Assembly: GCA_964432865.1 (NCBI GenBank)
Contig: CAYSOY010000001.1
Location: 1-51,312, forward strand
Reading direction: 5' to 3'
DNA: 51,312 nucleotides
Source of the DNA: an uncultured Methanosarcinales archaeon
GTDB taxonomy: Archaea > Nanobdellota > Nanobdellia > Woesearchaeales > UBA525
The position numbers and the translations under genes were made by a program. Position 1 is the stretch's first letter. Each line of letters opens with the position of its first letter. The notes below the pieces were generated by a model. It was not told the origin of the DNA. It ran no database searches and was given only the letters and a program-made list of their open reading frames with translations. Shown one piece after another: positions 2,765 through 46,381 of this stretch.

Positions 2765-3148
2765 GTGTGGCGCCGGTAAGCCGCCTTCTGTAGACTCCCA
2801 ACGGAAAACGTCGTTGACGGAGTCGAGGATATTCGACTAAGCCCTAAAACAGGTTGCACAAGCCGGGACTCACCGTTTCATCCATCCTTGCAAGGAAGGT
2901 CTGGCTGTTATGCTTAGAAAACACAAAGTGTTTTCTGGCATCCCAAAACCTTGCGGTTTTCAGGGACTCAGAGCCGTCGCCGGCTCCTTCAAAACCGTCA
3001 TTCCCAGAGCAAGAGGTCTCGTTTCTGCGTGGTTGCCGACTCTCTCGAGTCCTCACTTATGTGAGCAACTGTTAGTCTGTGGGCGGACTTTCCTCAGTGT
3101 CTGCCAGTCCTACCGGCAGGACCCCGATAATCCTCTCGACGCCTCACA
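2765..3148 (-). ncRNA. rnpB: RNase P RNA
   Basis: The minus strand carries CR-I GAGGAAAGUCCGCCC (RC of 3081-3095), GAUGAAACGGUG (RC of 2871-2882) and CR-V ACAGAAGGCGGCUUA (RC of 2777-2791). P1 pairs 5' GUGAGGCGUCG with 3' CGGCGCCACAC. A T-run follows the 3' end and TTTTTTAAA lies ~21 nt upstream. The region is GC-rich with only overlapping junk ORFs. Confidence 0.85.
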
Positions 3149-15038: not shown

Positions 15039-15340
15039 AAAAAACGCGTGTCGGAGAGTCGATCCTTTCGCAGAGGAGAGGCGACCTCCCTTTTTCCTCC
15101 TCTCCGCAACCCTCAGTACATACCCCCGGCAGATTAGGGCTGCACCGTTCCCGGCCTCTCGGGCGCGCAAAGAACTCTTCTTCCACGCAAGACCCGGTTC
15201 ACTACCCGGAACATCACTGAGGACAGAGTATCGGCAGTCCAAGAAAGACCTTTCCTCATTGGAAAAACCTCGTCCCCGACTTCGCCCCCATCATAAAGCC
15301 GATTTATGGTTACAAGGCACGGCTATCGCCCCAGGCTAGC
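15039..15340 (-). ncRNA. ffs: signal recognition particle RNA (7S RNA)
   Basis: The minus strand begins GCUAGCCUGGGGCGAUAGCCGUGCCUUGUAACC..GGGGGCGAAG, resembling archaeal SRP Alu-domain 5' ends recalled from memory. Helix 8 is AGGCCGGGAACGGUGCAGCC with a GGAA tetraloop (RC of ~15138-15157). Helix 5 pairs CCUCAGU with ACUGAGG. The RNA ends in a U6 run, and TTTAAAAAGA lies ~21 nt upstream. Confidence 0.85.
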
Positions 15341-15361
15341 ATAAGAAGTAACTCATATATT

Positions 15362-26950: not shown

Positions 26951-28108
26951 TCAACCAAACATCTTCATATAGTCTTCGCCTTCAAGATTCTCTTCCTGCT
27001 TGACTTTATCCACCGCGTGGAAGAAGTCCTCTTGTTTTACAGTGCTCCGGTCGTTTCTTATCGCGAAGTAGCCTGCTTCCGTACAGACAGCCTTTATCTC
27101 CGCACCGGAGAAGCCTTCCAGTTTTTTGAAAACTTTCTTCCTGTCCAGGTCTTTATCAAGAGTCATCGACTCTGTGTGGATGTCGAAGATCTCTCCTATA
27201 CCTTCACCTTCTGGTATGCCAACCTCGATTAATCGGTCAAGACGCCCCGGTCTCAGAACAGCGGGGTCCAGGATGTCCTTACGATTGGTGCAACCAATAA
27301 TCTTCACATCGCCCAACCTCTTGAACCCGTCTATCTCTGCAAGCAACTGCATGAAAGTCCTCTGGACTTCTCGCTCGCCGGAAGTTCCTATGTCAACTCT
27401 CTTGGCAGCCAAACTGTCTAACTCGTCTATGAACACTATCGACGGCGCTTTCTTCTTCGCCATCTCAAAAATCTCTTTTACAAGTTTCGCACCTTCACCT
27501 ATAAACTTCTGCACCAACTCCGAGCCCACGACCTCTATGAAAGTAGAGTTTGTTGAATTGGCAACTGATTTTGCCAGAAGAGTCTTGCCCGTACCGGATG
27601 GTCCGTGGAGAAGCAGTCCTTTAGGAGGAGTTATCCCTACATCTTTAAAGACGTCGGGCTTTGTCAGAGGAAGTTCTATTACTTCTTTAATCTCTTTCTT
27701 CTGATGGTCCAGCCCACCTATATCATCCCACGTGACAGTAGGCTTTTCAACTATTACGAATTTCTCTACGTTGTACTTGTCGGAAGAAGAGACCTTGTCT
27801 ACGATCGTCAAGTTTTTCTGCTCTACGAGAACGAAGTCGCCGGCAGATATTTCACCTACGTCGGAGTTCTCCTCTACCAAGAACTTGTTTCCGTTTGGAA
27901 CCTTGATTACACAGTGCTCTTTTCCTTCGTACTTGCTCTTTTCACAGACCTCTGCGACGAGAAGAGCGGGTTTTTTGAACTTCTTAATCTGAGACTTCAA
28001 CTTTGAAACAGTCTCTTTCAAAACCTTGTTCTCTTCCTCCAGTTCAGAATCTGACTGCGATGTAGTATACGTGTAGACCGTGTTTTCAAGTTCGTCTTCG
28101 GATCCCAT
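26951..28108 (-). CDS. pan: proteasome-activating nucleotidase (PAN, AAA+ ATPase)
   Basis: N-terminal coiled coil, then an OB region. Walker A GPSGTGKTLLAK, Walker B IVFIDELD, second region of homology present. The start was set at ATG 28108 (MGSEDELE), ~22 nt after TTTTAAATA. The track's 51-aa extension is hydrophobic junk. Confidence 0.9.
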   Translation of the reverse strand: MGSEDELENTVYTYTTSQSDSELEEENKVLKETVSKLKSQIKKFKKPALLVAEVCEKSKYEGKEHCVIKVPNGNKFLVEENSDVGEISAGDFVLVEQKNLTIVDKVSSSDKYNVEKFVIVEKPTVTWDDIGGLDHQKKEIKEVIELPLTKPDVFKDVGITPPKGLLLHGPSGTGKTLLAKSVANSTNSTFIEVVGSELVQKFIGEGAKLVKEIFEMAKKKAPSIVFIDELDSLAAKRVDIGTSGEREVQRTFMQLLAEIDGFKRLGDVKIIGCTNRKDILDPAVLRPGRLDRLIEVGIPEGEGIGEIFDIHTESMTLDKDLDRKKVFKKLEGFSGAEIKAVCTEAGYFAIRNDRSTVKQEDFFHAVDKVKQEENLEGEDYMKMFG

Positions 28109-28240
28109 AACCTTTGGAATAAAGAATAGGTATTTAAAAGTTATGGATTGGGCTGGCGGGTCCAACCAGGAAAAGATACAACTTGCCCCCCACCACAAAC
28201 TGCTTAAGAGTTTCGAAAAGAAGGTGTTCTGATAGGAAAG

Positions 28241-28488
28241 TGCGGGGGAAGGGGATTTCAAACCTCACATTATCAACAGTTCTTGGGAACTGTTTTTCTC
28301 GTGGAAGGTTATTTGAACCCTTGAACCCACTAAGGGATTGGATTCCTCATCAGTGGATGTCTCTCTCTTTTCATCGCCTCTCGGCTCGTCATTCAAGACA
28401 TGCAGTCTTGAGTCCAACGCATCTGGTCGAAACAACAAGTTGTTGCAGTTCTTCTGCTGTTCCATTGACCAGACTTTGCTACCCCCGC
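28241..28488 (-). tRNA. tRNA-Leu(CAA), class II, interrupted by three introns (D-loop; 37/38; 59/60)
   Basis: Exons are 28488-28465, 28422-28407, 28343-28312 and 28254-28241. The spliced 86-mer is GCGGGGG UA GCA AAGUCUGGUCAAA UGC G UUGGA CUCAAGA UCCAA UCCCUUAGUGGGUUC AAGGG UUCAAAC CCCUU CCCCCGC A. The acceptor stem has 7/7 pairs. U8, A14, G18G19, U33, G37, G53-C61 and A73 are all present. Introns 2 and 3 have canonical BHB motifs (see findings). Confidence 0.85.
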
Positions 28489-28514
28489 TTGTTTTACCGA
28501 AAGAAAGATGGTTG

Positions 28515-28523
28515 TTTATAAAA
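28515..28523 (-). promoter_or_regulatory. TATA-like box for tRNA-Leu
   Basis: TTTTATAAA on the minus strand, with 26 nt between it and tRNA position 1. Confidence 0.5.
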
Positions 28524-28564
28524 CTGTCGGAAGGTTCGAGAGAATTCGGTTCTGTTTTGAACAA

Positions 28565-28999
28565 CTACAACTTGTCCAACTTCTTGTCTATTTTGGAGAG
28601 TGACTGCTTGAGTTTGGAGAGTTCCGACGCCTCTTTTTTCGAAGGCCTCTTTTTCTTTTTCTTCTTTTTCTTCTTTGTTTTCTTCCTCTTCTTTTTCTCC
28701 GGCATTTCGTCCATCTCAGAGAGTGCTTTTTTCGGAACGCATTTCTCAAGGTCATTTACCAGCATGGTCATGTCTTCGAGAAGGTCCTCCATGGCGCCTG
28801 TTTTCTTCTCTGCTTTCTTCTTCAACTTCTCCAGAGAGGTGTAGAATGTTTTCAAGTTGTATATTGAAAGTTTAGAACTTTTCAAAAGGGATTTCTTTAT
28901 TTCCTTGGGGTTCTCCAGTTTTACAAAATATCCTCCGTGGTCTTTCTTAGACTCGGATTTACTACTCTTCTTTTTACCTTTAGATTTCTTCTTGGCCAT
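28565..28999 (-). CDS. lysine-rich coiled-coil protein (144 aa), third gene of a three-gene operon
   Basis: The N-terminus is MAKKKSKGKKKSSKSESKK and the protein contains an internal KKKRKKTKKKKKKKKKRPSKK run. Its helical module YFVKLENPKEIKKSL... is paralogous to the two upstream genes. The gap to the upstream gene is 3 nt. Confidence 0.6.
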   Translation of the reverse strand: MAKKKSKGKKKSSKSESKKDHGGYFVKLENPKEIKKSLLKSSKLSIYNLKTFYTSLEKLKKKAEKKTGAMEDLLEDMTMLVNDLEKCVPKKALSEMDEMPEKKKRKKTKKKKKKKKKRPSKKEASELSKLKQSLSKIDKKLDKL

Positions 29000-29227: not shown

Positions 29228-30442
29228 TCACAATATTTTTTCAGCTTCTATCAGTTTCTCCTGGATTTCATCCATCTCTTTATTGAATTTTGAGTACTTC
29301 TTGTTGAGTTTCTTCTTCGTGGAAGTGATATCGCTCATCAGTTCATCTCCTTTCTCTAATATGTCTCTGAGTTCCTCTATCTCCTCTATTACCTCCTTGT
29401 AGTCCTTCTGCTCGACATAGAGTTCCTCGGGCAGTTGGTGCTCTTCAACTTTCTTGAACTCGGGTTGTTCTATCTCCTTTGATTCTTCTATCTTCTCCGC
29501 TATCTCAAAGTCCTCGTCTTCGAAATCAGGGAGTGATTCTTCGGGCTCTTCTATCTTCTCTTCTTCCTTTTTTTTCTTTTTCTTCTTTTTCTCTGCTTCT
29601 TCTTTATCTTTAAAACTTGGCAGTTCGAAATCGCTCTCTTCCTCTAAGTCTTTCTTCTTTTTTCCTGCTGGTTTAAACTTCCTTGCCTTGCTCTTTTCTT
29701 TCTTCCCAGGCAGACCTTTCTTCTTCGGCTTGCCCCTTTTGGGCGAGCTTTTGGTTGGGCCCATCTTGGGTTTCTTTGCGGGTCTTTCCTTTTTCTTTGG
29801 AGAAGGAGGCATTTTAGGACGCTGTTGCCCGGGTTTTCTATTTTTCCCCGCGCCAACATCTTCTCTTTTAGGTTTCGGTCCTGTTTTAGGCTTCGGCCCC
29901 GGTCTTTGTTTTTTAGAAGACTTTTTAGAAGGACCTCTCTTTGGCGGTGGTGTTTTTTTATCAGGTGTTCCACGTCCGGGTTTAGGTGTTTCGGAAGAAC
30001 CAGGTCCTCCTTTCGCAGGAGGGTGTTGATCTGAAAGGCCTAAATTATTAGATTTAGAAGGGTTAGGACTCGGCGGTTCTTTTGGTCCGCCTTTTTTTCT
30101 CTGAAACTTCTTTCCAGAAGGATCTTCCCCTAAGTCTCCGGGCTTCGGTGGGTTCAAAGGAATATCGCTCTTCGGTCTTTGTGGGGACTCGCCTTTTTTA
30201 GTTCCGGGGGGCATCTCACTTTTGCCAGGCCCTGGAGGCTTCTCCTCTTTTACAAGTCCTCCAATACCTTTTTTTCCTTTTTTAGGAGAGTTCTTAGGAG
30301 GTTTATCAGGAATCGGGGAAGAGTCTTTTCCTTCCTGTCCCGACTGTTTCTTCGGTTTTGCTGACTTATCTTTAGAACTATCCTTCTTATCAGAATCTTT
30401 CTTTAAAAAACCTAAAAATCCCATCTCAACCCCTTTTTCCAT
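29228..30442 (-). CDS. 404-aa protein: amphipathic N-terminus, ~280-aa P/K/G-rich disordered basic region, acidic linker, C-terminal coiled-coil module
   Basis: The protein contains MGFLGFLKK, then PKKQSGQEG...GPKPKTGPKPK...KPKKKGLPGKKEKSK, then KKKKKKKKEEEKIEEPEE, then LYVEQKDYKEVIEEIEELRDILEKGDEL. Low complexity explains the long antisense shadow ORF 29454..30029. Confidence 0.6.
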   Translation of the reverse strand: MEKGVEMGFLGFLKKDSDKKDSSKDKSAKPKKQSGQEGKDSSPIPDKPPKNSPKKGKKGIGGLVKEEKPPGPGKSEMPPGTKKGESPQRPKSDIPLNPPKPGDLGEDPSGKKFQRKKGGPKEPPSPNPSKSNNLGLSDQHPPAKGGPGSSETPKPGRGTPDKKTPPPKRGPSKKSSKKQRPGPKPKTGPKPKREDVGAGKNRKPGQQRPKMPPSPKKKERPAKKPKMGPTKSSPKRGKPKKKGLPGKKEKSKARKFKPAGKKKKDLEEESDFELPSFKDKEEAEKKKKKKKKEEEKIEEPEESLPDFEDEDFEIAEKIEESKEIEQPEFKKVEEHQLPEELYVEQKDYKEVIEEIEELRDILEKGDELMSDITSTKKKLNKKYSKFNKEMDEIQEKLIEAEKIL

Positions 30443-39012: not shown

Positions 39013-40233
39013 TCAAGCCAAACTAACTTCCAACTCTTCTTTCAGAAGAGTTCTTACCCTGTCTTCTATGCCTTGTGTCATTGCAAGATTTATCTCTCTT
39101 GTCCTTCCAAACCTTCCTTTGCTGACTACTTTGGCGTTTATTATACCCAGCATGTCGAGTTCTCCTATAATATCTGATATCCTCCTCTGAGTTAGAGGTC
39201 TCAGCGTGGTGTTCTTGGAGAGTTCCTTGTAGTAACTATATATATCTCCCGTGCAGATAGGCTTTTTTTCATCTGACTGCTGATCCAACTGCATTATCGC
39301 CAGAAGTGTGAGTTGGGACTGGCTCGGCTGGCTTTTGATAATCTCCTGTATTTTGTCTTTCTCTATTTTGTCCTCTGCTATATTGAGATGTTTTATTCTT
39401 ATTTTTTCATCACCTCTCCTTTCTGCCAGTTCGCCAGCCACTCTTAGTAGTTCTAAAGCTCTTCTTGCATCTCCGTGTTCTCTCGCTGCGTACGCAGAAC
39501 ATTTTCTTATCATCTCTTCTTTCAACACACCATCGTGAAATGCGTTCTCTGCTCTCGACTCAAGTATCGACCTTATCTGAAGAGCGTCATACGCGGGGAA
39601 GAGAACCTCTTCTTCAGACAGGGAAGATTTGACTCTTGGGTCCATGTTGTTGCTGAAAGAAAGACTGTTGGTTATTCCTACTACGGATACTTGTGAGTTT
39701 TTAAGATCTGAGTTTATTCGTGTAAGGTTGTAGATTGCTTCGTCACCTGCTTTTCTTACTAAGTGATCTATCTCATCCAGGATGAGGATTACTATTTTTC
39801 TCTCTTCATCCAGGGCGGAGAAGAATGTGTTGTATACTTCGTCTGTCGGCAGTCCCGTCGGTGGTATGGATTTTCCGAGGAAACGCGCGAGTTGAGCTAC
39901 TAAACGGTACTCTGTGTCTGCGCATTTCTTCAGTTTGCAGTTGAGGTAGAACATTTCTAAAGGAATATCTTTCTTATCCGCTGTGTTTTTCATTTTTTCC
40001 ATTATATATTTTATAGATAGAGTTTTTCCCGAACCTGTTTGTCCATAGAGGAAGAGGTTTGAAGGGTTTTCTTCTCTGAGTGCGGGCGCGAGTATGTTGG
40101 CGGTCTTGTTTATCTGCTCATCTCTGTGAAGTATGTCGTCGGGTATATGTTTGGATTGAAGAACATCTTTATTTTTGAATAGAGATGTTTTGCTCATGTA
40201 GTCCTCGAAAAATTTATTAAGTTCAATGCCCAT
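39013..40233 (-). CDS. cdc6: Orc1/Cdc6 replication initiator
   Basis: Walker A YGQTGSGKT, Walker B LILDEIDH, sensor motifs, and a C-terminal winged helix (RRISDIIGELDMLGIINAKVVSKGRFGRTREI). Confidence 0.9.
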   Translation of the reverse strand: MGIELNKFFEDYMSKTSLFKNKDVLQSKHIPDDILHRDEQINKTANILAPALREENPSNLFLYGQTGSGKTLSIKYIMEKMKNTADKKDIPLEMFYLNCKLKKCADTEYRLVAQLARFLGKSIPPTGLPTDEVYNTFFSALDEERKIVILILDEIDHLVRKAGDEAIYNLTRINSDLKNSQVSVVGITNSLSFSNNMDPRVKSSLSEEEVLFPAYDALQIRSILESRAENAFHDGVLKEEMIRKCSAYAAREHGDARRALELLRVAGELAERRGDEKIRIKHLNIAEDKIEKDKIQEIIKSQPSQSQLTLLAIMQLDQQSDEKKPICTGDIYSYYKELSKNTTLRPLTQRRISDIIGELDMLGIINAKVVSKGRFGRTREINLAMTQGIEDRVRTLLKEELEVSLA

Positions 40234-40403
40234 TTTTATTTCAACTATTATTTATTTTTATCTGTTTTTATTAGTTTAACAATCTTGCCCCCTTCAAGTT
40301 TTCTGCTACATTTTCCAAAAGAAACCGAGGTTATATAAATTTATCTATTATGGAAAACATATTCTAAAAATCATAGTTTCAAGTAGCCATAACCCACCCC
40401 TTT

Positions 40404-40418
40404 GTTTCATGTGGAAAC
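40404..40418 (+). repeat. ORB-type dyad GTTTCATGTGGAAAC
   Basis: Read directly from the sequence. The extended match CACCCCTTTGTTTCATGTGGA (40395-40415) recurs at 46574-46594 with one mismatch. Confidence 0.7.
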
Positions 40419-40624
40419 TGGTCTTTTAGTAAAAGTTGTTTTAAGTTTTTTATTTTATATTATTCTTTATGTAGTATAAATTTTAATTTTTCTCCGAGGA
40501 TTTCTCCTCTAATTACTTATATTTGTTATTGTATTTATACTTGCTATACTATTTCTTCTACTTCTTAGTTTCCTCTTTCTTGTTTTTATTTTCGTCTTTA
40601 AATATTGTATTTAAGAGTTCTGTT

Positions 40625-40637
40625 TTCCACTTGAAAC
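40625..40637 (-). repeat. ORB-type element TTCCACTTGAAAC (= GTTTCAAGTGGAA on minus)
   Basis: Read directly from the sequence. Its orientation is opposite to the 40404 copy. Confidence 0.65.
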
Positions 40638-40798
40638 AAGGTTTTTATTACTATATAATATAATATTAATTATAATATATTTATTTTCTATATTGAAATA
40701 AATTAAATTTTAAAAAGCAGAACATATTACTTATTTTATCCAGTCACTTAAGATACTAATACTTACTCTCTTTTTCACAATTTTATTTTATACTAAGG

Positions 40799-40811
40799 TT
40801 CCACACGAAAC
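40799..40811 (-). repeat. ORB-type element TTCCACACGAAAC (= GTTTCGTGTGGAA on minus)
   Basis: Read directly from the sequence. A weaker fourth copy, TTCCAAAAGAAAC, is at 40313-40325. Confidence 0.65.
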
Positions 40812-40938
40812 CATGGTGTCTCACTGAAAAACACCAAAAATAATTTTAACTACCTTAAAATAATAAAAACCAAAAGATTTATAAAGAACAGGTCATTATC
40901 CAAACAATACGAAATTAATTTGAGTCAATGGTGAAAAA

Positions 40939-41763
40939 ATGATTGTAGAAAAAGAATTCCTAAACAAAATAAAGAAGTTCGGAATAAACACGTACGAAGC
41001 AAAGATATGGACAGCGCTTCTTTCAAGAGGGGTCTCCACAGCAGGAGAACTTTCGGAAATATCTGACGTGCCTCGAAGTAGAAGCTACGACGTTCTCGAA
41101 AGCCTTGAAAAAAAAGGTTTTATAATAAGAAAAGTAGGAAAACCTATAAAGTACATAGCTGTTTCTCCAGAAGAAGTCTTGGAGAGAGTTAAGAAAAAAA
41201 TAAAGAAAGACTCTAAAAAGAAAAGAGAATCACTTGAGGATATGAAGGATACTGAGACACTCAACGAATTGAAAGAACTCCACAAAAAAGGAGTAGATAC
41301 AGTAGATCCATCCGAAGTCACAGGGGCTTTAAACAACAGAGAGAATACTTATGATCAACTAATGAGTATGATAAAAGGTGCAGAAGAGTCTATATACTTG
41401 TTAACGACTCCTCAAGGAATGGTTAGAAAGTCCAAGGTTTTAGAGAGATACCTCTACAAGGCTGCAGAGAGAGGAGTGGATGTAAAAGTATCAGCTCCGA
41501 AAACTGAAGAAGTAGAGGAAATTTTCGAGAGAATAAATCAGTTCGGAGAAGCAAGGTATGTGAAGGATATAGAATCAAGGTTCTGCATAGTAGACAAGGA
41601 AGAACTAATCTTTATGCTGATGCACGACGAAGAAGTCCACCCTGTCTATGATGTCGGCGTATGGGTGAATACACCTTTCTTTGCCGAAACACTGTCAGAA
41701 CTCTTTGAAAAAGCGTGGGAGAGCGAAGAGAAGAGCATCAAAGTTGAAGCCAAGAACAAATAA
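40939..41763 (+). CDS. TrmB-family transcriptional regulator
   Basis: INTYEAKIWTALLSRGVSTAGELSEISDVPRSRSYDVLESLEKKGFI is the TrmB wHTH. A PLD-like C-terminal domain follows. Confidence 0.8.
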   Translation: MIVEKEFLNKIKKFGINTYEAKIWTALLSRGVSTAGELSEISDVPRSRSYDVLESLEKKGFIIRKVGKPIKYIAVSPEEVLERVKKKIKKDSKKKRESLEDMKDTETLNELKELHKKGVDTVDPSEVTGALNNRENTYDQLMSMIKGAEESIYLLTTPQGMVRKSKVLERYLYKAAERGVDVKVSAPKTEEVEEIFERINQFGEARYVKDIESRFCIVDKEELIFMLMHDEEVHPVYDVGVWVNTPFFAETLSELFEKAWESEEKSIKVEAKNK

Positions 41764-41908
41764 TTTTCTTTTTTTTAACTGATTAATCAGAGAACAAAAA
41801 AATAAATAGATTTAAGAGTGTTCTAATCAACTTTTTTTTACTACTTGCTTCTATTTCTGACAAAACTTAACAAAAAAGTATATAAATAAGTTTTTTATTG
41901 GATAAATC

Positions 41909-42763
41909 ATGGTATTAGAGAATATCTTGTCGGCTGAAAAGGCAGAGAGCAGTCCTTTCCGAATGGTCTTTCTTGGTTTTTTATTCGTTGCGGTAGGCTC
42001 TTTTCTCGGTTTCCAGGTTTTCAAAAAATACTCTTCATTACTTTCAGTCTTCCTCTCTGCCATGGCTGCTATTCCTTTGATGATAAAGATAATAAAGATG
42101 GAAGAGGAGAAAGACCTTGAGGGGAAGAAAGAGTTGTGGTTGTTGAAAGAGCACTCCAAGGCACTCCTAAGTTTCTTCTGGCTTTTCATAGGAATGACTT
42201 TGGCTTTTACTGCGATATATCTTCTTGTTCCTTCTTCAACACTCAATGTTCTCTTTGAAGCTCAGACGAATACGATAACCAGTATAAATTCAGGAGTCAC
42301 ATCCTTCTCCACTGCGTCTTTCCAACACTTCACCGATATTTTTATGAATAATCTTCTTGTTCTTTTCTTCTGCGCTCTCTTCTCTCTTCTCTACGGCGCC
42401 GGAGCGATTTTTATACTCTCTTGGAACGCCTCTATAATTGGAGTTGCGATAGGAGATTTTATAAGGTCTGGCTTGACGACGTACTCGCACCTGTTGGGGT
42501 TGGAAAAAATTGCGCAGTACTTCCAGGTAGTAGGAGTAGGTCTTTTGAAATACGTAATTCACGGGGTTCCTGAGATACTTGCGTATTTTGTTGCCGGGCT
42601 CGCTGGAGGAATAATTTCAAAGGCGGTTGTAAACCACGATTTTGGAACGAAGGATTTTGAAAAAGTTCTTTTAGACTCCGCTGATCTTCTGCTGTTGAGT
42701 TTTGTACTGCTTCTGCTGGCTTCTGTTTTTGAAGTCTGGCTCACACCTCTCGTTTTCTCATAA
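41909..42763 (+). CDS. SpoIIM-like (DUF95) membrane protein
   Basis: FMNNLLVLFFCALFSLLYGAGAIFILSWNASIIG and HGVPEILAYFVAGLAGG are typical of the stage II sporulation protein M family. Confidence 0.7.
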   Translation: MVLENILSAEKAESSPFRMVFLGFLFVAVGSFLGFQVFKKYSSLLSVFLSAMAAIPLMIKIIKMEEEKDLEGKKELWLLKEHSKALLSFFWLFIGMTLAFTAIYLLVPSSTLNVLFEAQTNTITSINSGVTSFSTASFQHFTDIFMNNLLVLFFCALFSLLYGAGAIFILSWNASIIGVAIGDFIRSGLTTYSHLLGLEKIAQYFQVVGVGLLKYVIHGVPEILAYFVAGLAGGIISKAVVNHDFGTKDFEKVLLDSADLLLLSFVLLLLASVFEVWLTPLVFS

Positions 42764-45820: not shown

Positions 45821-46381
45821 TTAGTCCAGATTTGTCAACACTTCTATGAGTTTCTCTACTGCTTTGTCTACTTGCTCTTCTGACTTGGTTCCTGTACAGA
45901 CGATTTTTCCGTTTGTAAACAATAGGAATGTGGCTTTTGCAGCCATAAGTTTGTAGACTAGCCCGGGGAACTGTTCTGGTTCGTACTCTGTGTTCTCCAG
46001 TTTCATGGCGAGTTTGTTCAGGTTTACGTCCATTCCTATGTTTCCGGATGCTACCATGTTTTGAATGGTTATATCCGGTTTTACCCTGATTTCTATGCCT
46101 ATTTCTTCGACGCTGTCAACTATCTTCTCAACACTTCTTTCTGCCTCTTCGAGGCTGTTTGCTCCTGTGCAGACGATTTTGCCGGAGCTGAATATAAGCG
46201 CTGAGGTCTCTGGTTCTTTTATTCTTAGGACCAATCCGGGAAACTGCTCGGGATTATACTCTGTGTTGCTCAGCATCGCCGCCATCTTTTCCAGAGGCAC
46301 GTCGTGTTCCAAGTTTGTAGAAACAACAATATTCACTATCTCTGTATCATTTTTTTCTTTTTTCTTTTGGTTAGTTTTCAT
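45821..46381 (-). CDS. tbp: TATA-box binding protein
   Basis: Two direct repeats: EYNPEQFPGLVLRIKEPETSALIFSSGKIVCTG and EYEPEQFPGLVYKLMAAKATFLLFTNGKIVCTG. Confidence 0.92.
   Translation of the reverse strand: MKTNQKKKEKNDTEIVNIVVSTNLEHDVPLEKMAAMLSNTEYNPEQFPGLVLRIKEPETSALIFSSGKIVCTGANSLEEAERSVEKIVDSVEEIGIEIRVKPDITIQNMVASGNIGMDVNLNKLAMKLENTEYEPEQFPGLVYKLMAAKATFLLFTNGKIVCTGTKSEEQVDKAVEKLIEVLTNLD

Follow-up and report, generated by a model that had tools for sequence, protein, structure and literature searches.

The tRNA-Leu gene and its surroundings

On direct reading, the minus strand from 28488 to 28241 of the window (the whole stretch of 51,312 nt that was analysed) consists of four collinear exons of a tRNA-Leu gene, which together with three introns extends over 248 nt. 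Exon 1 (28465-28488, 24 nt) covers tRNA positions 1-21, that is, the 5' strand of the acceptor stem, U8, the 5' strand of the D-stem and the D-loop up to A21. Exon 2 (28407-28422, 16 nt) contains positions 22-37 with the 3' strand of the D-stem, G26, the 5' strand of the anticodon stem and C32 U33 C34 A35 A36 G37. Exon 3 (28312-28343, 32 nt) contains positions 38-59, with the 3' strand of the anticodon stem, the long variable arm, the 5' strand of the T-stem and the T-loop nucleotides UUCAAA, and exon 4 (28241-28254, 14 nt) contains positions 60-73, namely C60, the 3' strands of the T-stem and the acceptor stem, and the discriminator A73. All of these exons, like the introns between them, lie on the minus strand. 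Intron 1 (28423-28464, 42 nt) is located in the D-loop at position 21/22, intron 2 (28344-28406, 63 nt) at the canonical position 37/38 and intron 3 (28255-28311, 57 nt) in the T-loop at position 59/60, which gives a total intron length of 162 nt. These exon and intron coordinates had been proposed in an earlier sequence-only reading of the same DNA, and they were reproduced exactly, with 24+16+32+14 = 86 nt for the exons and 42, 63 and 57 nt for the introns. The acceptor stem proposed there was also recovered, GCGGGGG (28488-28482) pairing with CCCCCGC (28248-28242) at seven of seven positions, followed by A73 at 28241. The terminal CCA is not encoded at the end of exon 4. As the four exons are collinear within 248 nt, the gene is not of the split or permuted type.

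The gene lies within an intergenic space of 456 nt, and the deposited protein of the neighbouring ATPase gene begins at 28108, outside the tRNA gene. Mechanically called ORFs do overlap the gene, as had been noticed before, but they number four rather than three, and none of the four has a Pfam match. A TATA-like box, TTTTATAAA, is present at 28515-28523 (minus strand), from -35 to -27 relative to tRNA nucleotide 1, and may act as an archaeal promoter. The box had been reported 26 nt upstream of G1, and it was found there, at the spacing seen in the tRNA-Leu genes of relatives, where upstream TATA-like motifs mostly start at -37 to -31 (114 genes among the matches listed). A T-rich tract (TTCTTTT, 28216-28222, minus strand), about 20 nt downstream of A73, is a possible site of transcription stop. 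The window also contains a gene for the TATA-binding protein at 45821-46381 on the minus strand (Pfam TBP, 203 bits), and a promoter of the TATA type, as proposed here for the tRNA gene, is consistent with this.

The spliced product as a tRNA-Leu

In the unspliced window no tRNA was called by ARAGORN, and the Rfam tRNA model (RF00005) gave no match at the gathering threshold or at E<=10, either for the whole window or for 28150-28600. The missing Rfam match is expected, because the gene carries 162 nt of introns. When the three introns are removed, the resulting 86-mer is called tRNA-Leu(caa) by ARAGORN, in agreement with the identity claimed before; in this call the D-stem has 3 bp, the anticodon stem and the T-stem have 5 bp each, and the variable arm is long. 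The minimum free energy (MFE) structure predicted by RNAfold is likewise a class-II cloverleaf with the variable arm (-29.7 kcal/mol). All 23 of the 23 stem pairs are intact in the spliced tRNA, and the conserved nucleotides are kept, including U8, A14, G18 G19, A21, U33, G37, U54 U55 C56, A58, the G53:C61 pair and A73. The product has the features of a class-II tRNA-Leu, namely the long variable arm, A73 and the anticodon CAA with G37.

A profile HMM built from 31 distinct intronless relatives scored the 86-mer at 82.3 bits over positions 1-86. Searched against the unspliced window with nhmmer, the same profile returned only fragments in the correct order: exon 3 with 23.6 bits (E=3e-6), exon 1 with 18.7 bits and exon 2 with 4 bits. 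Among the matches listed, the best identity of the 86-mer is 79 of 86 positions, to the tRNA-Leu(CAA) of locus L010. Over an alignment of eight sequences the cloverleaf is 100% paired, and compensatory changes occur at eight pairs. The predicted T-loop is UUCAAAC, in which C60 stands against U at position 60 in every aligned relative.

Intron motifs and folding

A 4-bp helix and two 3-nt bulges frame each of the three introns, and at least one flanking helix is present in every case. Intron 3 has a strict hBHBh' motif, which reads AAGGG UUCA AA|U AACCUU ... GAGGUU UGAA AU|C CCCUU, with an exon-side helix of 5 bp (A=5), a central helix of 4 bp (H=4) and an intron-side helix of 6 bp (B=6). Its helices and its 3' bulge form in the MFE structure of the whole precursor; the 5' bulge is slipped there by one nucleotide (UUCAA:UUGAA). 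Intron 2 has an hBH motif, GUUGGA CUCA AG|A ... UGAG GA|A UCCAAU (A=6, B=0). No helix follows directly after its 5' bulge, and a 6-bp helix (AUGUCU:AGACAU) comes only beyond an internal loop. The sequence-only reading had described both introns as textbook bulge-helix-bulge (BHB) motifs, a description that suits intron 3 but not intron 2. For intron 1 a relaxed motif had been proposed, and it is indeed of the relaxed HBh' form, GGUC AA|U followed by a 10-bp helix and GACC AG|A (A=0, B=10). Here the GGUC:GACC helix and the bulge were recovered as described, but the intron-side helix is of 10 bp, not of the 5 bp given earlier.

The motifs are not equally well formed in the predicted folds. The motif of intron 2 is the MFE structure of the isolated anticodon arm only and is absent from the MFE of every full-length intermediate. 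In intron 1, the 3' bulge AGA can pair instead with UCU of the D-loop, which gives a 7-bp helix, and the D-stem is offset by six nucleotides. The motifs of introns 1 and 2 are not fully formed in the predicted MFE, and a fold that enforces all three motifs has -77.8 kcal/mol against -91.8 kcal/mol for the MFE, i.e., it lies 14 kcal/mol above it. Relaxed motifs of the kinds found in introns 1 and 2 are cut by broad-specificity endonucleases (PMC3239211; PMC5829648; PMC12397907).

No homologs were detected for any of the three introns, either in the loci of the relatives or in the window. A possible C/D-box sRNA was considered in intron 2 (28344-28406, minus strand), where GAUGA and CUGA are separated by 17 nt, spaced like one half of the archaeal sR43. 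This candidate was rejected as probably due to chance, since the Rfam sR43 model scored 9.4 bits (E=8.9), a terminal stem is lacking, and the putative guide pairs inside the intron.

Introns in the tRNA-Leu genes of relatives

A genome collection was scanned with a slightly degenerate exon-1 pattern, and at least 118 loci were retrieved; the contig of the window itself is not among the matches listed. The 24-mer pattern of exon 1 therefore recurs across at least 118 archaeal tRNA-Leu genes, but exon 1 was the query that retrieved them, so its conservation is partly circular. The loci come nearly all from DPANN bins (Woesearchaeota, Micrarchaeota and Nanoarchaeia), together with records labelled 'uncultured Methanosarcinales', and most of the at least 118 listed loci are called tRNA-Leu by ARAGORN. 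Spliced alignment of the 118 listed loci gave 35 genes with no intron, 53 with one, 21 with two, eight with three and one with four. In these loci the intron sites cluster after mature nucleotides 21-24 (n=11), 40 (n=70) and 72 (n=12), and the three cluster sites are the three sites of the window gene. One relative among the 118 listed loci, L087, has introns at all three sites.

The relatives bear directly on the splice junctions. After GGTCAA, the sequence ATGCG follows in 90 of the 118 listed loci, giving a mature D-loop GGTCAAATGCG exactly as the proposed boundaries of intron 1 do. A 44-nt version of intron 1, which was first preferred by the scoring rule and gives GGUCAUGC, was rejected on this evidence, as the intronless relatives read GGTCAAATGCG. 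Introns at the same D-loop site occur in ten other genomes among the matches listed, with the common layout GGTC AA|N, an intron helix of 0-12 bp, GAC[C/T] (GATT or GGCT in two of them), NN|A and TGCG. The intron helix has at least 2 bp in eight of the ten genomes and a different sequence in each, and the central helix is conserved; judged from such comparison, the predicted D-loop intron helices of the relatives show structural covariation. T-loop introns at the site of intron 3 are found in about 12 relatives among the matches listed, with the T-stem, TTC[A/G] AA|T ... [T/C]GAA AG|T and the T-stem again. The splice junctions that had been claimed for the window gene are in this way fixed independently, by intronless relatives that read through junctions 1 and 2 and by introns at the same sites at 21/22 and 59/60.

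Further features of the listed loci were observed in passing. Another recurrent intron site lies after mature nucleotide 62-64, at the border of the variable arm and the T-stem (L009, L051 and L071, also L035), and its introns have 27-31 nt, an intron helix of 8-10 bp and a 4-nt loop. In two Woesearchaeota tRNA-Leu(CAA) genes, L076 (SLQZ01000084.1) and L091 (PWLK01000075.1), the canonical intron is unusually long, at 154 and 165 nt, respectively. The T-loop intron of L022 measures 134 nt, and the inserts in L052 measure 106 and about 120 nt. Many TPA records of 'uncultured Methanosarcinales archaeon' (L003, L008, L010, L012, L087 and about 20 more) carry tRNA-Leu genes that differ very little from those in Woesearchaeota bins. 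Genes with multiple introns in the DPANN style are found among them, and the taxonomic label of these records may be wrong. Synteny was uninformative, since in the relatives L001 and L002 it is not a tRNA gene that lies upstream of the proteasome ATPase.

The possibility has to be weighed that the locus is a decaying, non-functional relic of a tRNA-Leu gene, in which the insertions are real, expression or splicing has been lost, and another gene supplies tRNA-Leu(CAA). Such a reading could draw on the view being limited to the sequence of one 51-kb contig, on the fold with all three motifs not being the MFE, and on C60, which departs from the relatives. Against these points, none of the 23 stem pairs is broken and the conserved nucleotides are in place; every insertion retains a helix-bulge geometry that could be cleaved, a promoter-like box stands at the expected distance, and many genomes preserve genes interrupted in the same way. 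A relic is considered very unlikely on balance, and a functional gene remains the preferred reading of the locus.

Identity of the anticodon

The placement of the anticodon-loop intron decides which leucine isoacceptor is encoded. ARAGORN run with the -i option reports 'cag', with a 63-nt intron that starts two nucleotides earlier, so that the same gene would have the loop CUCAGAA and encode tRNA-Leu(CAG); this loop does occur in tRNA-Leu(CAG) genes of the relatives, e.g., L021. However, the intron would then be located at 35/36, without bulge-helix-bulge geometry, and the 4-bp helix CUCA:UGAG with the bulges AG|A and GA|A fixes it at 37/38. The CAG genes of the relatives moreover have different stems.

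Another line of evidence came from a metagenome scan with an exon-3 pattern, which yielded one contig, L121, with an intronless tRNA-Leu(CAA) that scores 62.2 bits as a tRNA with Rfam. Its anticodon arm and variable arm are identical to those of the spliced product, and it reads CTCAAGATCCAAT across the exon 2/exon 3 junction. With the identical stem GUUGGA/UCCAAU, the loop of L121 is CUCAAGA. Because the helix-bulge geometry and the L121 homolog both give CAA with G37, the anticodon loop CUCAAGA proposed in the sequence-only reading is supported, and the CAG placement is very unlikely.

Removal of candidate introns across the window

Three freely placed deletions represent many degrees of freedom, and for this reason a SPLITS-like test was written. 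All candidate introns were listed in which two 3-nt bulges enclose a 4-bp central helix and a flanking helix is present, one or two of them were removed, and an anticodon-loop intron was then placed by ARAGORN. About 82,000 spliced variants from both strands of the window gave matches at the tRNA-Leu locus only. A looser scan of all intergenic gaps of the window again led to this locus only, and no other hidden tRNA was found in these gaps. In 20 dinucleotide-preserving shuffles of the window there was one spurious locus, which required a 274-nt 'intron'. The three proposed introns rank among the best-scoring candidates of their region, with an intron-side helix of B=10 for intron 1, an exon-side helix of A=6 for intron 2, and A=5 and B=6 for intron 3.

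That a cloverleaf was carved by chance from ordinary sequence by means of three free 'introns', the overlapping ORFs being the real content, might seem attractive in view of the many degrees of freedom and the four mechanical ORFs in the region, but it is already refuted as far as sequence analysis allows and has a negligible probability: 102 kb of real sequence gave only the tRNA-Leu locus and about 2 Mb of shuffled sequence gave one spurious locus, the 86-mer reaches 82 bits along its full length, relatives confirm the junctions, no Pfam family matches the overlapping ORFs, and the deposited PAN protein starts outside the gene.

The host and neighbouring genes

The proteasome-activating ATPase encoded next to the tRNA gene (26954-28108, minus strand) has at most 66-69% identity to anything in a set of 5.8 billion proteins, and its nearest named proteins are from Woesearchaeota and Nanoarchaeota. 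An archaeal RNase P RNA was identified at 2765-3147 (minus strand, 126 bits) and an archaeal SRP RNA at 15040-15346 (minus strand, 96.0 bits, just below the gathering score of 96.5). Considering the ATPase matches and the archaeal RNAs, the host is taken to be a member of DPANN to which no sequenced organism is closely related. Trimming of the 5' end of the tRNA precursor would be the task of RNase P.

Some other parts of the window are of separate interest. A Cdc6/Orc1 gene at 39013-40233 (minus strand; Pfam Cdc6_C, Cdc6_lid and AAA) adjoins a gene-free stretch of 705 nt (40234-40938). No part of the window is richer in A and T than this region (GC 0.32 for 40001-42000), and a replication origin is likely here. 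Two adjacent ORFs at 28565-28999 and 29228-30442, both on the minus strand and of 144 and 404 amino acids, encode extremely Lys/Pro/Glu-rich, low-complexity sequences, and the shorter one had sub-cutoff Pfam matches only.

Proposed expression and maturation of the tRNA

The locus is best explained as a tRNA-Leu(CAA) gene that functions in a Woesearchaeota-like DPANN archaeon, and very probably it contains three protein-spliced introns of the BHB type, at 21/22, 37/38 and 59/60. Based on the established knowledge of archaeal tRNA splicing, a maturation pathway can be proposed. The gene would be transcribed from the TATA-like box at -35, and the 5' end of the precursor would be trimmed by RNase P, with the 3' end being trimmed as well. 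The archaeal splicing endonuclease EndA would cut after the second bulged nucleotide on both sides of each motif, an RtcB-type ligase would join the exons, and CCA would be added. Since introns 1 and 2 have relaxed motifs, the predicted endonuclease is most likely an enzyme of broadened specificity, as described for the EndAs of DPANN, ARMAN and Crenarchaeota. An EndA domain was not found in the 20 ORFs of suitable size that were searched in the window.

The restored gene provides the window with a tRNA-Leu(CAA) where ARAGORN and Rfam find none, which affects how the tRNA complement and the completeness of DPANN genome bins are judged. It is a clean three-intron example outside Crenarchaeota and, together with its at least 118 relatives, it shows that DPANN tRNA-Leu genes make repeated use of the same sites in the D-loop and the T-loop. 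Such genes should be useful for studying the co-evolution of tRNA introns and the specificity of splicing endonucleases. It is conceivable, though we rather lean against it, that 21/22 and 59/60, with 37/38, are lineage-wide hot spots for tRNA-Leu introns across DPANN (Woesearchaeota, Micrarchaeota and relatives), occupied in different isoacceptors by introns of unrelated sequence. If this were true, the introns would be either very old and kept under selection or the result of repeated site-specific insertion, and a sizeable share of the 'missing' tRNAs in DPANN bins would be multi-intron genes processed by a broad-specificity endonuclease of the DPANN type.

Comparison with known systems

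As many as three BHB introns in one archaeal tRNA gene are a familiar finding, chiefly in Thermoproteales (PMC4033280; PMC8450103), where the cases include Pyrobaculum, Caldivirga and Thermofilum (Sugahara et al. 2007, 2008; Fujishima et al. 2010, as cited in PMC4033280 and PMC8450103). As far as these cases are summarised in the citing papers, they share with the window gene the presence of multiple BHB-type introns (up to three) at canonical and non-canonical sites including the D- and T-arms, the relaxed motifs, and the fact that they were overlooked by ordinary tRNA finders. The window gene differs in its host, which is a Woesearchaeota-like DPANN archaeon and not a crenarchaeon. Its introns are without detectable homologs and thus give no hint of intron transposition as described for Thermoproteales, and the endonuclease expected to act on them would not be the crenarchaeal (alpha-beta)2 enzyme with the CSL loop.

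A closer parallel is found within DPANN. Disrupted tRNA genes of these archaea, including genes with multiple introns, have been linked to EndAs with an L3 loop, and incomplete predicted tRNA sets were taken as a sign of disrupted genes that had escaped detection (Kaneta et al. 2018, PMC5829648). The statement in the sequence-only reading that multi-intron tRNAs are mainly reported from Thermoproteales and a few other lineages is hence incomplete, as they are also documented in DPANN, the lineage of the window (PMC5829648). The window gene resembles the disrupted tRNA genes associated with the L3-loop alpha4 EndA of DPANN or the epsilon2 EndA of ARMAN (Fujishima et al. 2011, PMC3239211; PMC5829648) in belonging to the same superphylum and in having multiple as well as non-canonical introns. 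Those studies, however, surveyed a handful of genomes, and the literature searched describes neither the window gene nor the repeated occurrence of 21/22 and 59/60 as intron sites of tRNA-Leu in many DPANN MAGs. For its intron models, tRNAscan-SE 2 relies on training with Crenarchaeota/Euryarchaeota and Thaumarchaeota (PMC8450103), and DPANN tRNA genes of the present kind may therefore still be under-called.

The most similar gene among the relatives is the tRNA-Leu(UAA) of L087 (CAZXEZ010000065.1), with introns after mature nucleotides 24, 40 and 72, i.e., at the same three sites and with the same helix-bulge layout; L009, L071, L044, L050 and L007 have two of the three sites in common with the window gene. 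Unlike the window gene, all six encode the UAA and not the CAA isoacceptor. At about 30-38 nt their introns are shorter than those of the window gene, to which they have no sequence relationship, and the 3' bulge of their T-loop intron is AG|U, which gives U60, in contrast to C60 in the window gene. The window gene reveals no new mechanism and belongs to a kind of archaeal gene that is already known; it is a case of the undetected disrupted tRNA genes that Kaneta et al. (2018) anticipate in DPANN.
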